From Octopus vulgaris (lineage: Eukaryota), in NCBI GenBank assembly GCA_951406725.2, contig OX597821.1, positions 54,002,001-54,066,000 on the forward strand: a stretch of DNA of 64,000 nt, given 5' to 3'. Both the position numbers and the translations under genes were made by a program. This document shows positions 12,540 to 45,382 of this stretch, piece by piece; the stretch's first letter is position 1, and the number at the start of each line of letters is the position of its first letter. The notes beneath the pieces were generated by a model. It did not search any database. It saw only the letters and a list, made by a program, of their open reading frames with translations, and was not told the DNA's origin.

Positions 12540-13345
12540 GCTGTGGACTCACTTTATTTGCCAGGTCTTCTCAGTCACAGTATATCTCCAGAGGTCTCAG
12601 TCTTTTGTCATTGCCTCTGTGAGGCCAAATATTCGAAGGTCATGCTTCAACACCTCATCCCATGTATTCCTGGGTCTCCCTCTACCCCATATATCTTCCA
12701 CTGTTTGGGGAGTGACACTTCTTCACACAGCTCTCCTTATCCATCTGCAGTATGTGACCATACCAAAGCAAACATCTCTCTTGCATGCCACATCCGATGC
12801 TTCTTATGTCTAACATTTCTCTCAGGGCACTTACATTCTGTCGTGTGTGCACACTGACAATACGCATCCAACGGATCATGCTAGCTTCATTTCTTTTGAG
12901 CCTATGCATGTCTTCAGCAGTCTCAGCCCATGTTTCACTGCCATGAAGCATGGCAGTTCGCACACATGCATCATACAATCTACCTTTCACTCTGAGCGAG
13001 AGATCCTTTGTCACTAGCAGGAGTAGAAGCTTTCTGAACTTTGCCCAGGCTATTCTTATTCTTGTGGAAACACTCTCTGAGCATCCACTCCCACTACAGA
13101 CTTGGTCACTTAGGTAGTGGAAGCCATCAACTAGCCTCTTACCCTGGCATGTGATGGAGTCTGTTTTCTGAGCATCTGTGGTGTTTATTGCCCCTGTGCA
13201 CTTGCTGCACATGAAAGCTATCTTCACGGTTAATCTTCCTTGGATGTTGCTGCACCTCTTATGCGTCCATAGCTTACACTGGATACGTCTTATGGAGTTT
13301 CTGCCTACACCTTTTCTACAGATCGAGCAGTGCCACCTGCCTGAA
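12540..13345 (-). mobile_element. RTE-clade LINE, 3' fragment (C-terminal to RT)
   Basis: ORF 12682-13227: FHYLSD...RIRIAWAKFRKL...SLRVKGRLYDACVRTAMLHGSETW...MIRWM...LLWYGHILQM, typical of RTE ORF ends. Confidence 0.9.
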
Positions 13346-13574
13346 GGGGTGTGTGTGTATTTGTGTCTGTGTTTTTCCCCCCAACATCGCTTGACAACCG
13401 ATGCTGGTGTGTTTACGTCCCGTAACTTAGCAGTTCAGCAAAAGAGAATGATAGAAAAAGTACTAGGCTTACAAAAAATAAGTTCTGGGGTCAATTTGCT
13501 CGACTAAAGGCAGTGCTCCAGCATGGCCACAGTCAAATGACTGAAAGAGTAAAAGTAAAAGAGTAAAAGAGAGA

Positions 13575-17790: not shown

Positions 17791-17852
17791 TCAACTGAAT
17801 ATATATATATATATATATTTATATGTGTGTGTGTGTATATATATATATAATA

Positions 17853-18408
17853 TTTGCGGTTTTGAGTTTAGCTGCTCTTTTCAAGTGAGTCGAACGACCT
17901 TCTCAGGGTCATTCCTTAATTATTTGTTGAATATATTATATAGTCTGTGACTATCTCTATTTTCTCACTTGACCGCTGGTTGCAGAAAATTTCTCTTGAA
18001 TTTTTTGTTACCCTTATATTGATTGATTAATGAATTCTTGACTAATTCTGAAATTTGTATCAGCAGTTTATATTTGCTGCGGAGTAGATGGCACGATTAC
18101 GGTGAATTCAAAAATTTAGGATATATAGACCCGAGGCTTAGATGGTGTAGCCTCGTGTATATATATCTCCCCCTCTTTTGGCGACTTTGCTGACGAGACA
18201 AGCCAAGCGTAAACAGATTTAATTTAATTTAATTAAATTTGATTGCGTGAAAGATGTTGAAACCTTGCAGGGTACAAAGTTTGAAGGGGATAAATGTTTT
18301 TATTTCTCCTCTAGTTTCAGAATTACTACTATTTTTGCGGTTTTGAGTTTAGCTGCTCTTTTCAAGTGAGTCGAACGACCTTCTCAGGGTCATTCCTTAA
18401 TTATTTGT

Positions 18409-18411
<3 letters not shown>
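17853..18411 (+). mobile_element. Terminally redundant 481-bp HHR unit (retrozyme-like) within (TA)n
   Basis: Apparently identical 78-bp direct repeats at 17853-17930 and 18334-18411, a central HHR, and TA microsatellite on both sides. Confidence 0.85.
18184..18280 (+). ncRNA. Type I hammerhead ribozyme, intact core
   Basis: ACTTTG-CTGACGA-GACA...(54 nt)...TGTT-GAAA-CCTTGCAGGG-TA-CAAAGT. Stem I is a perfect 6 bp. Predicted cleavage after GUA at 18274. Confidence 0.85.
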
Positions 18412-18446
<35 letters not shown>

Positions 18447-18779: not shown

Positions 18780-19560
18780 CCACCTGACATCTGTTACCAC
18801 AGGGCTGAATTAATTTCATGCAAAGTGATGGAGTATTATTGTTCCATTCGTTTTTCAATAACTCTCAGAGTTCATCATGGTTCTTTGAATTTCTCCTTCG
18901 TGCCCCATCTCCAATAATCTTCTAGACGTTTTCTATAGAGTTGAGACCGGGATGTTGAAGCAGCCAGTCCATGAGGTCATCCCCTTCATTGCACAAAAAC
19001 TCTTTGACTCGCTTCGCAGTGTGCCAGGGAGTGTTGTCCTGCATGATAATAGTGGTAATAGGAGGTTGAACTGACGAGGTTCAGAGATATGGAAGGGCAG
19101 GGCATGCTGTCTAAGAATCTGCTTGTAGATTTCAGCATTGACAGTCCCAAGAAGCAGCAGCAGAGATCACTCCCCATATTATTACATTGCCTCCTCCATA
19201 TTTCACTGCCTTCTTCACACATGCACAAGATAACCTTTCACCACTTCTTCGTCAGACGTACATCGGAATCAATCACATTAAACTTCGATTCATCGCTAAA
19301 ATGAACCTGTAATCACTGTTCTGTCCAAAAGACATGTTCATTAGCAAAACCAAGACAGGCTTTTTGATTCATCTTGGAGATCAGAGGTTTCTTTACCTGT
19401 GTCCGAGCAAGCAACCCAGAAACTCATAACTTCCAAGAAACTGTTTTGCATGTAGTGAAAGCACAGAATTGCATACATGTATACATATGTACTGCCAGGG
19501 ACTGAAATCACTTGAAAATGCTGGTCGAGAATTTCCTATACTGATTGGTCAGTTTCAACT
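18780..19560 (-). mobile_element. Tc1-like transposase pseudogene
   Basis: Minus-strand remnants VHFSDESKFN, IMQDNTPWH and SIENV* (degenerate PIENVW). Confidence 0.75.
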
Positions 19561-19676
19561 AATTCCATAGCCTCATCAGTAGGAACTGCTTGATTTGGCT
19601 TGATTCCAGACTTAATTCTTTGTCAGTACATATGTATTCACCATAAAAATCAATGGATGATTTAGCAACTCACTAA

Positions 19677-19785
19677 TGTGTATACAAAAAATTAATATAG
19701 ACAGCCGTGTGCAATGTTTTACCAAAAAGGAATTTTCCTTTTGGTAACACATTGCACATAGCTGTCTATATTAATTTTATACACA
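19677..19785. repeat. ~110-bp palindrome
   Basis: AAAATTAATATAGACAGCCGTGTGCAATGTTTTACCAAAAAGGAA-TT-TTCCTTTTGGTAACACATTGCACATAGCTGTCTATATTAATTTT. Confidence 0.9.
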
Positions 19786-19795
19786 CACATACATA

Positions 19796-37645: not shown

Positions 37646-37999
37646 AAGAGACAGGCAGAAAGAAAGAGAAACAGATGGTGTTGGAGATGTAATATACATA
37701 CATTCTAGAGCCTTAAGAAAGATCTAATTCACACCCTTAATTCTTCAGGGCTTAAAGATACAATAAAAACCATTTTTAATTTCCTCAATGTGGCATTAGG
37801 TTTTACATAGGTACCTATAAACATTTTAAAAAATTGAACAAGAGGCTGGAATATATTAAAACAGGTTCCTGCCACCCAACCATATTTTTCAGAAGCCTGA
37901 TAGAGGATGTTAACTAAAAATTTCCAGTCTATCTTCAAGTAAGGAGATTTTGGAAACCATAATCCTGTACTACAAGGCCCTAGCAGCCAGAGATTTTGA

Positions 38000-40620
38000 G
38001 GATAGAATTAAGTATATGCCCAAACTTAATCTTATCAAGGAAAATGGCCCCATTTTCTCTGAATGTAAAATCTTGTACAAGCAGGATCTTTCTTAGTTTA
38101 ATCAATAATTATTTCCTCCAAGCACATAGATTCAGGAAAATATTTAATATACACACCTTGAGGGTACGTTTAGATGTGCTCCAAGCAAAATAAAAATATT
38201 ATCAAGAAGGCAAAAATCTGGAATGGAAGCAGGCTGCTCATGCAGAGCTAACATCACATGCCAACCTAACTACCGTTGCAGTACAGAAACTAGTTTGTAT
38301 GAGATGGAGATGATATCAAAGAATTCAAATAGAGTGACAGACATACAAAAGATATGGAAGTGACAGGTCTCCTCAAAACCAGATTCAACTACCATGAGTT
38401 TTTGTTTGACATTCAAGAGAAGTGATATGTCACATCTCTAGCATGGCATATCAGGACAGTGAAGAAAGATGCCGTGGAGGATGTGGGGAAAATCCAAACA
38501 TTATTTTAACAGTAGTAGAAGATGCAAGCTTTTTTAACTGAGAAAAGTATTATACTAAAGAACTTTTTCCATCCAAGGAATCTCTTTGAATTGTAAGAGT
38601 GATTTTCCAATCCTGCCCTCATGTACACAGATTTGTCCTAACATACTCTCCAATTGCATCATGAATATAAACACTGGAGTACCTGCATCAGTTTTTCATT
38701 TCACAAAATATGAGGAGTTAATATAAGACTTGCTACACCCATCTGTGGCACATATACACGGATTCACACATTCACACATATATATGCACACATTTACACA
38801 TAATGATAAAACATTAATGGATATGTCATAGTCTGATCTTTTCAGTAGATATCTAAAGGAAATCATCTCAATTTCAACAAGGTTAGAAATGAGTCTGTAT
38901 GAAAAGAGAAATGATCAATGATGGGGAAAAAATGGGAAAAAGTAACTGCAATATAATGAATGATGTCAGATGAAAAATATGAAATGAAACAAACAAGGAG
39001 TTCACAACATATTGTCTTATGACCATAGCAATGGTATGAAGGTAGTAACTCATAGAGAAATATCACCTTGTAGCCTCCATCATGCTAAGAGACAAAATCA
39101 GCCATCCATTCTCTATAAAACCAAAAGGGGAAAGTGGAAGATTTGGGCAAAAAGGCAGAAGGGTAGTAGGAGGTCATAGCAAGTGAGTATAGATAATGAT
39201 TGTCATGGAGAAATGGAGAGGATAAATGGTAACTGAATGCCAGGTGGAAAGATATATATATAGGTAGATACGGATATGTAAGAAGTTATATATTAATGTT
39301 ACCATTGATACCATTTTCACTTTGTGCCAGCTTACCCTGCATTTTCCCTTGGTAAGATGGGTCTTCTCCAGCACACTGTTTTGGAACTTTCTCTTCTTCT
39401 TTTGTGAGGTTCAGCTGTGCAAATTCAGATTTCCTCATTTCTGTTCATATCTTTCTTTGATCTTTCTCATGTCTTTCTTTGATCTTTCTCATGTCTTTCT
39501 TTGATCTATTTACATTGTTTAGAACACGATTATCCAATTGTTATCCTTCATGTTTGCACCAGACCTGTCTTATTTTTTATTACATCCAAGTTTTCTTAAA
39601 GTTAGTTTTTATCTCAGTTCATTTGCACCATGTTATTCGTGAAATCTAACATTACACATTCAAAGGAACATACCTTCTCTCTTCCCATCACTCACAAATT
39701 CTGCACACTGAATATACATGTCCCACCACTATGAAATTTCACATGCTGTACACAAGCATCGTGCAATCTACTCTCTATTGTAAATCAGAAGCCTTTTATT
39801 GCCAGCAGAAAACATAACTCTGAACGTTTCCTCACTTTTTCATTTTCCAGGCTACTCAGCTTTCAGAACGTTCATTCCCACTGCTAATTAGATCAACTAG
39901 GTAAAAGAATTTGTCAACTTCTACTAATGAGCATGATTACTTTTTAAAAGAATTTATTTCATGTGGGCCTTTCCTGTTCACCACTCCTGCACCTCTGCTG
40001 TATATGAATTTCTCCACAAAATCCTTCTTTCCTGTGTTGCTTATGACGTAACTGCATTTTGTCACCTATAATTTGCTTTTACATTTTAAAGATTTTCTAC
40101 CAAATTCTTTTCTGTATATCAAGCATGGTAGCTGCTCAGAAAGTCAGCAGAGAATTGCATGACTTCTTAATTATAAGATTTTCTTCCATATTTGATATTT
40201 TTCCCAAATTCTTTAATATATTAATTGGCATGCAGTGGCTCCCATGCACAGCAAGTCTTCATCTTCTCTATTATAGCTTTTAAACTTCAACAGACAGGAA
40301 GAAATTGAGAAACAAGCCTTGATTGATGAATTCCTTACTGAACTCATTGCCAATTCTCACCTTACTGACAGCATTTTCGTAGTTGGCTTTCATGACTTTC
40401 ACAAAGCATTCATTTATCTATACTTTGTCTTTTTTCTTAGCAACCACCAGATTTCAGAGTTGTAACTAGCTCTGGCACATGTCCAAACTTCATCTCATTT
40501 AAGCTAATTTTCTTTCAAAACAGTTGTGCTGGAAGTTTTTCATAACTTGGTCAATTAATTGGCAATAACGATACTGTTCTGTCAGTAAATATAAACGATC
40601 CTTTCATGGAATACATGATC
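38000..40620. mobile_element. Highly decayed LINE (RTE-like) fragments, probably both orientations
   Basis: Minus remnant LVEVDKFFYLVDLISSG near 39875-39930 and VSKVRIGNEFSKEF near 40330-40370. The plus-strand part is weaker. Confidence 0.5.
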
Positions 40621-44989: not shown

Positions 44990-45382
44990 TTATGTCTAAT
45001 AATTCTAAGATTAAAAATTCTATATACCAATGTAAAATTTTTCAGGTACCGATGTCTATTTCTATATTGGTGCTTCCTCTTCCCAGTTAACTAAGAGACT
45101 TTCCAATCATTATTCTTCATTTAGGGATAGCAGTTAAATGCAATAGCACAGGGCTTAGTAAATTGGTTTGGTATCTTAAAGACAACAATAAGGATTTTAA
45201 ATTAGACTGGTTCATCCTGTCCATCTCTTTCCCTTATGACAAGGGTAAAGGATTTTGTAACATTTGTGACTCTGAACTCTTCCATATTCTCTTCTCTAAG
45301 AATCACCTGGTTAACACACTTATAGAGTGATCTTACAAATGTAAGCACTGGCAGAAACACACTTTTAGCTCATATAAGTGAT
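44990..45382 (+). pseudogene. Penelope-like GIY-YIG endonuclease remnant
   Basis: With two frameshifts: KNSIYQCKI..FYIGASSSQLTKRLSNHYSSFRD..STGLSKLVWYLKDNNKDFKLDWFIL..PYDKGKGFCNICDSE...LVNTLIE*SYKCKHWQK*. Confidence 0.85.

Follow-up and report, generated by a model that had tools for sequence, protein, structure and literature searches.

We found that the 559-nt insert at positions 17853-18411 of the window (the whole 64,000-nt stretch of Octopus vulgaris DNA analysed here, contig OX597821.1) is a 5'-truncated copy of an animal non-LTR retrozyme family, likely pasted into a (TA)n microsatellite in trans by the RT/GIY-YIG protein of a PLE (probability about 0.85). Its copies are dispersed, end 3' at one of two fixed sites next to (TA)n, begin at variable 5' points, occur in tandem arrays and as arms joined head-to-head, and carry a covarying ribozyme. 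The element is of a known class, which behaves as a non-autonomous PLE and presents every retrozyme feature that can be tested from DNA; cleavage of its RNA and the partner enzyme are inferred, as are any circles. The features of the locus are as follows (window positions).

17799..17852, no strand: target microsatellite on the left side, (TA)n that includes a run of (TG)n.
17853..18411, + strand: whole insert, a 5'-truncated single arm of one 481-nt unit plus 78 nt, terminating at the short end of the family.
17853..17930, + strand: first copy of the 78-nt overlap; its left edge is the 5' truncation point of the window copy, and 5' ends differ among copies.
17931..18027, + strand: 'tail' of about 97 nt, from the short end (unit position ~78) to the long end (171-175), internal in the window copy.
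18061..18079, + strand: hairpin CAGCAG (18061) / TTGCTG (18074), found in the sister family too.
18132..18155, + strand: hairpin CGAGGCT (18132) / AGCCTCG (18149); the sister family retains a GAGGC/GCCTC core.
18183..18281, + strand: type I hammerhead motif with a 54-nt insert in stem II, predicted cut 18274/18275.
18284..18312, + strand: purine/pyrimidine hairpin directly 3' of the predicted cut; site of many head-to-head junctions of the family.
18334..18411, + strand: second copy of the 78-nt overlap, terminating at the fixed short end (likely reverse-transcription start).
18412..18443 (also given from 18411), no strand: right target microsatellite, (TA)16.

The insert is bounded by microsatellites on both sides. 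Repeat comparison within the window showed that 17853-17930 and 18334-18411 are identical over 78 nt with a period of 481 nt (extendable to 81 nt with one mismatch), and the hammerhead pairs and core at 18184-18280 lie in the unique middle, outside the repeated ends; both points agree with what the sequence-only reading had stated. The 481-nt unit has 35% GC and a CpG observed/expected ratio of 0.89 versus 0.31 in the window, a value that only 4 tiles of 481 nt out of 133 attain. Among the other copies, the nearest are 99.2% identical over 501 nt and 99.4% identical over 175 nt, and therefore the insertion is young. The earlier claim of a recent retro-insertion into (TA)n thus holds, given these relatives and the microsatellite flanks. 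As to the grounds it had offered for youth, CpG retention stands; 78 identical nt on their own bound divergence only at about 3.8% (arithmetic, 95%), and the nearest copies serve better. No ORF of at least 200 aa overlapping the insert was found. When the empty site was looked up in three other sequencing runs, contigs broke at the microsatellites, and among the joints listed none skips the insert.

Some further features of the window were recorded. A pyrimidine tract followed by AG at 18297-18321, 3' of the ribozyme, is splice-acceptor-like, and introns adjoining the ribozyme are described as possible in PLE pLTRs (PMC4209133). Decayed Hydra-like PLE protein fragments lie at 37816-38166 and 45148-45372 (tblastn E 0.01, 1e-4, 7e-6), and two inverted repeats, possibly MITE-like, at 19478-19790 (32-nt arms; 57-nt arms with a 1-nt spacer). 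On the reverse strand, a 250-aa open stretch at 12685-13434 with a Cys/His-rich start looks by eye like LINE-derived frames at other loci.

The insert has many relatives. A search of the 2.8-Gb genome returned at least 94 family matches, with 40 of 1917 candidates scored, and exact matches numbered 155 for the stem III/I motif and 275 for a 19-nt marker (reversed-pattern controls 0). Copies are dispersed across most large contigs, form arrays with a unit spacing of 481-487 nt, and fall into subfamilies about 2, 5 and 10% divergent from the window copy. A sister family is 76% identical over 511 columns, and its own motif has 237 exact matches. This sister retrozyme family (L296:1500-1990; L283-L307) has a unit of about 458-475 nt and the same two ends, and its hammerhead has the cleavage triplet GUC and a G-C pair at the stem II base. 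In a look-up for RNA evidence no holder was recorded as RNA, and the contigs of four guessed-RNA runs contain family sequence, which carries no strand, end or circle information. Neither 'ribozyme' nor 'retrozyme' occurs in the one octopus repeat paper that was checked, and, as judged by a limited search on retrozymes in cephalopods, the family looks undescribed in the open literature.

The ends of the copies carry the main argument. We mapped 208 arms on a natural 4.5-unit array, leaving 202 arms from 132 loci after duplicate loci were dropped (L039, L092, L093); further rows were dropped as duplicates or register artefacts (L028 and L082, from exact-match and junction counts; L090 and L168). 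Among the 202 arms, 98 terminate at the short 3' end (unit position ~78), 101 at the long one (171-175) and 3 elsewhere, and thus two fixed 3' ends 97 nt apart together hold 199 of the 202. The 5' ends are scattered, starting at unit position 136 in the last unit and reaching as far as 4.5 units upstream. Head-to-head pairs join one short and one long end in 57 of 65 cases, the remainder being four long-long (at least two because the reference ended), three long-other and one short-short, and TA lies within 4 nt of the end at 143 of 175 scored ends. The 97-nt tail is terminal in about half of all family arms and internal in the window copy. A 13-nt duplication inside the tail leaves the long end in place, as do tail deletions in the sister family; therefore the ends are set by sequence. 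The family thus has these features of a non-autonomous PLE: two fixed 3' ends bounding a tail, 5' truncation, partial tandems, an inverted 5'-truncated arm and (TA)n targeting. This pattern of two ends, tail, truncation and inverted arm is the published PLE 'tail' footprint. Craig et al. 2021 (PMC8557442) describe PLE insertions into (TA)n as partial tandems that include an inverted, 5'-truncated copy and have a tail on one side. In the in vitro work of Frangieh et al. 2024 (PMC11167929), a PLE protein is reported to cut both strands of AT-rich DNA and to start reverse transcription inside the RNA, at two sites between which the tail lies.

The window copy consists of one arm that has the short end and stopped at 559 nt. 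The overlap of 78 nt therefore follows from that fixed end and a 5' stop that fell by chance, and the figure of 1.16 units is accidental. The sequence-only reading had taken the overlap as a record of reverse transcription going slightly more than once round a circle, and had suggested comparing overlap positions among copies; that comparison gives the idea no support, the 3' end being a family-wide fixed end and the 5' ends being spread over the unit and up to 4.5 units. The same reading had excluded an LTR-type layout, and rightly: the ribozyme is type I and outside the repeat, and overlap length varies among copies. The 78-bp ends are not common to all copies and the hammerhead motif is conserved, so that, as far as tested, neither finding named there as a refutation was made. 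An LTR retrozyme, with a type III hammerhead inside fixed LTRs, was likewise considered as an identity for the insert and rejected on these grounds.

An origin at the DNA level alone, through local tandem duplication or satellite-type recombination without an RNA intermediate, could account for arrays that look homogenised after insertion, such as one with three identical units (L118), and for the segmental duplicates among the loci (L093/L095, L091/L092). Against it stand the dispersal over most large contigs, the 5' truncation, the inverted arms, the fixed TA ends and the compensatory changes in the ribozyme; it is already contradicted by the end pattern, and we consider it highly improbable.

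For retrotransposition by a PLE protein, we propose the following course. A tandem source locus would give multimeric RNA, and the protein would nick one or both strands of (TA)n; cDNA would start at one of two places, unit position ~78 (short site) or ~175 (long site), and synthesis would run backwards through at least one unit to a variable stop. The window copy would represent a short-site start and a stop at 559 nt, leaving the 78-nt overlap. Its template, longer than one unit, would have been either a linear multimer, uncut or cut in part, or a circle closed by ligation.

The putative ribozyme consists of stem I (18184-18189/18275-18280), CUGACGA (18190-18196), stem II (18197-18200/18255-18258), which closes the 54-nt insert, GAAA (18259-18262) and stem III (18262-18265/18270-18273) with a palindromic UGCA loop, and the predicted cut is at 18274/18275. 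In the window family the base of stem II is G.U instead of G-C. An Rfam scan of the window at the gathering score returned no match, for which the long stem II insert is our guess at a cause, and a pattern that combined this stem III with a short stem II matched one sequence, which lacks a credible stem II. The exact full-core hammerhead motif has 61 matches in the genome (control 0). Among 16 hammerheads from the two families, 97.8% of cells are paired, and 6 of 14 pairs have changed on both sides, two per stem in all three stems, whereas controls with a slid structure reached at most 44% paired and at most one pair changed on both sides. The observed value of 'pairs with a change on both sides' was reached in 71 of 500 shuffles, and because the 16 rows are related, the shuffle control overstates significance and only a handful of events are represented. 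Judged from these alignments, the hammerhead is kept by compensatory change.

The hammerhead-constrained fold (-24.0 kcal/mol) costs 1.6 kcal/mol over the unconstrained best (-25.6 kcal/mol), which is not a hammerhead. Stem III gives -18.9 kcal/mol as a self-duplex versus -1.7 kcal/mol as a hairpin, and the ribozyme is predicted probably to cut best as a dimer via its palindromic stem III. Folding the circularised unit, a check proposed in the sequence-only reading, gave -121.6 kcal/mol versus -99.6 +/- 6.5 kcal/mol for 60 dinucleotide shuffles (z = -3.4, 65% paired; reverse strand -101.5), and the two hairpins named there, CAGCAG/TTGCTG and CGAGGCT/AGCCTCG, are both present and both form in this circular fold. 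Release of a monomer by double cleavage requires two ribozymes according to the 2026 preprint of Li, Clavereau and Pollet (10.64898/2026.07.22.740005), and the window copy has one; therefore it would be a product of the cycle that cannot excise a monomer. The same preprint reports cleavage in only one of the nine retrozyme dimers tested, which calls for caution about the predicted activity of the octopus hammerhead.

A ligated 481-nt monomeric circle may have served as the template, the overlap then being just over one round. Reverse transcription of a circle beyond unit length was already proposed for PLEs (PMC4209133), and therefore the circle model of the sequence-only reading is a published hypothesis; it is compatible with PLE chemistry given a fixed priming site on the circle, and retrozymes of coral, mussel and axolotl are reported to form circles (PMC7229834). 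In the unbiased set chosen by the 3' marker, 46 of 89 arms (64 loci) cross the cleavage site, and each of the 136 crossings that the pattern recovered is of native length, with no sloppy template jumps seen; therefore the templates were longer than one cut monomer. Partner arms of the same locus show 107 differences in 6954 nt (1.5%, 48 pairs), and in 9 pairs the first arm is nearer to its partner than to any other locus; none lies clearly at between-subfamily distance (highest 7/119 and 5/77), which points to one source RNA read in two registers. These observations and the circular fold speak for a circle. Against the circle, the fixed 3' and scattered 5' ends make the figure of 1.16 an accident, natural linear sources exist in arrays of up to 4.5 units (L118), and unprocessed RNA is reported as the dominant PLE substrate in vitro (PMC11167929). 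A unit-in-register test found nine recurrent differences between the last and the previous unit, four of them common to two independent multi-unit copies (L206 and L231); two of these four survive proper alignment (one CpG change and one 1-nt length change) and two vanish, which is a weak hint of a non-identical multimer. A circular template is thus possible, an uncut linear multimer fits equally well, and the monomeric circle is an alternative that we consider less likely than not.

We found three young autonomous PLE families in the genome, with near-identical copies and open frames. The Hydra-type family (L149:1700-5522; G000:C1:194225000-194232500) has a 727-aa frame with RWK, DKT and CxCX5C motifs, a canonical small hammerhead and a tail of about 72 nt, and 150 of 150 scored matches are at 98-100% protein identity. 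The first Neptune-type family (L277:3829-8099; G000:C5:5977000-5986900) has a 775-aa RT/EN frame in a unit of about 4.27 kb, with copies 99.6-99.8% identical; an upstream 454-aa frame overlaps the 775-aa frame, some copies have a 1199-aa open frame, and a hammerhead-like motif in the 3' region has the variant core CCGAAGA and a stem III that is minimal and palindromic. Its assignment to the Neptune clade uses the CX2-5CxxC linker and RT motifs. The third family is a C-rich Neptune type with a long CA-rich 3' region (L308-L315; found at L179). A Pfam search with a PLE C-terminal piece gave nothing useful. The Hydra-type and 775-aa Neptune-type families each have a short and a long end at (TA)n; their tails measure about 30-46 and about 72 nt, and the 97-nt tail of the retrozyme matches neither. 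The predicted cut of the retrozyme lies 137 nt from its short end, compared with about 142 nt for the first Neptune type and 41 nt for the Hydra type.

The retrozyme family might be the detached pseudo-LTR of an undiscovered autonomous PLE, its copies being heavily 5'-truncated cis products. There is a precedent in Xenopus, where 24 of 57 retrozyme families are reported as homologous to annotated TEs at the pLTRs, 21 of the 22 TEs being PLEs (10.64898/2026.07.22.740005), and the genome searches scored only the best candidates, leaving room for other PLE families. On the other side, the arms longer than one unit lead, in the loci examined, either to a further unit or to an inverted arm, and in no case to a PLE ORF lying upstream on the same strand, no PLE parent was found attached upstream of retrozyme units in those loci, and the unit closes on itself head-to-tail. 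We regard this origin of the copies as improbable; an ancient pLTR origin of the family is possible.

For mobilisation in trans, the best lead to a partner comes from a locus where a short-end retrozyme arm stands head-to-head with a 5'-truncated Neptune-type PLE with no TA between them, the PLE terminating at its own long end (L243/L244). The PLE part is 98.6-98.8% identical to its own family and the retrozyme arm 97-98% to its nearest relatives, and the ages agree, at about 1.3%; the locus would follow the one-short-one-long rule with arms taken from two RNAs. At another locus (L179) a retrozyme long end is fused directly to a truncated PLE of the third family, both about 100% identical to their families, while a Hydra-type PLE follows a TA run beside a family copy at L020 and an older Neptune-like piece is found at L063. 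The PLEs at these four loci differ in family and all share the TA target; serial insertion can therefore explain each. The PLE pieces at L243:1791 and L179:1329, from two different families, both break off close to one RT motif (G.AMGT), at most a few codons away, probably by chance. Against mobilisation by these PLEs count the differing tail lengths and the comparison of the unit with the pLTR regions of the Neptune-type and Hydra-type families, which detected no homology (local scores 30 versus shuffled means of 32 and 38), nor was any found in the 3.4-kb loci of the third family. A Neptune-type PLE is the most likely partner, at slightly short of even odds.

The 5' ends offer a lead only on ribozyme cutting. 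In the 89 arms from 64 loci chosen by the 3' marker, synthesis stopped 3.5 times as often per position within the 20 nt that follow the predicted cut as within the 100 nt before it (14/1068 versus 15/3978, p = 0.001). This excess is confounded by the adjoining hairpin: without 16 arms from pairs with both arms ending in or near it, the excess falls to 1.6 times (p = 0.23), and one other window of the unit has an equally high stop rate, on 4 ends. Arms starting at the first base after the cut number 4 of 198 versus 0.5 expected (p = 0.002); by eye only L095 and L196 are clean, and microhomology blurs the other two, L029 and L216. It is conceivable, if rather unlikely, that a Neptune-type protein primes one multimeric or circular retrozyme RNA at both starts, sometimes taking its own RNA for the second arm (L243), and that some templates are ribozyme-cut with cDNA run-off at 18275. 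Ribozyme mutants are reported to have left PLE insertion unchanged in vitro (PMC11167929). If this Neptune-type life cycle were true, a mobiliser would be named for an animal retrozyme lacking pLTR homology, and there would be genomic evidence of a hammerhead cutting transposition templates, an effect that the in vitro results of that study did not reveal.

Taken alone, the locus is nothing unusual, being a truncated member of a class already known. The family as a whole can serve as a test system, since one genome combines a small non-coding RNA, a covarying ribozyme and three PLE families. With it one could ask by what enzyme animal retrozymes are moved, and if their template is circular or a multimer left uncut.

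Animal non-LTR retrozymes were defined with circles in coral, mussel and axolotl and with PLEs proposed as mobilisers (Cervera and de la Pena 2020, PMC7229834), and retrozymes have been argued to be non-autonomous PLE derivatives (Li, Clavereau and Pollet 2026). Like the animal elements described there, the octopus family has a non-coding head-to-tail unit with GC below 50% (35%), one type I hammerhead per unit, a palindromic loop III, a predicted self-paired RNA, co-occurring PLEs, and monomers, dimers and multimers. Its 481-nt unit is above the 150-450 bp given in PMC7229834 and within the range of 51-972 bp that the 2026 preprint gives. Among the animal retrozymes in these accounts, its stem II insert of 54 nt and its G.U base pair are atypical; the two fixed ends and head-to-head arms do not feature in the retrozyme descriptions of either source. 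With plant LTR retrozymes as described in PMC7229834 and the preprint, the family shares a non-autonomous, hammerhead-bearing nature and, in the window copy alone, a terminal direct repeat; it differs in its type I rather than type III ribozyme, which lies outside a repeat of variable length, and in its (TA)n target. Unlike EN+ PLEs as they are generally described, it has no ORF, its tail is about 97 nt versus the usual 30-40, and no homology was detected to the pLTRs of the autonomous families tested. Like EN+ PLEs of the Neptune and Hydra clades and the non-autonomous MRC1 (PMC8557442, PMC11167929, PMC3846280, PMC4209133), it shows partial tandems, 5' truncation, an inverted 5'-truncated arm, a tail at one end, a hammerhead upstream of the ends and (TA)n targets with no discernible TSD, a TSD being indistinguishable inside (TA)n. 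Targeting of (TA)n is thus common to the octopus family and to Naiad, Neptune and Hydra.
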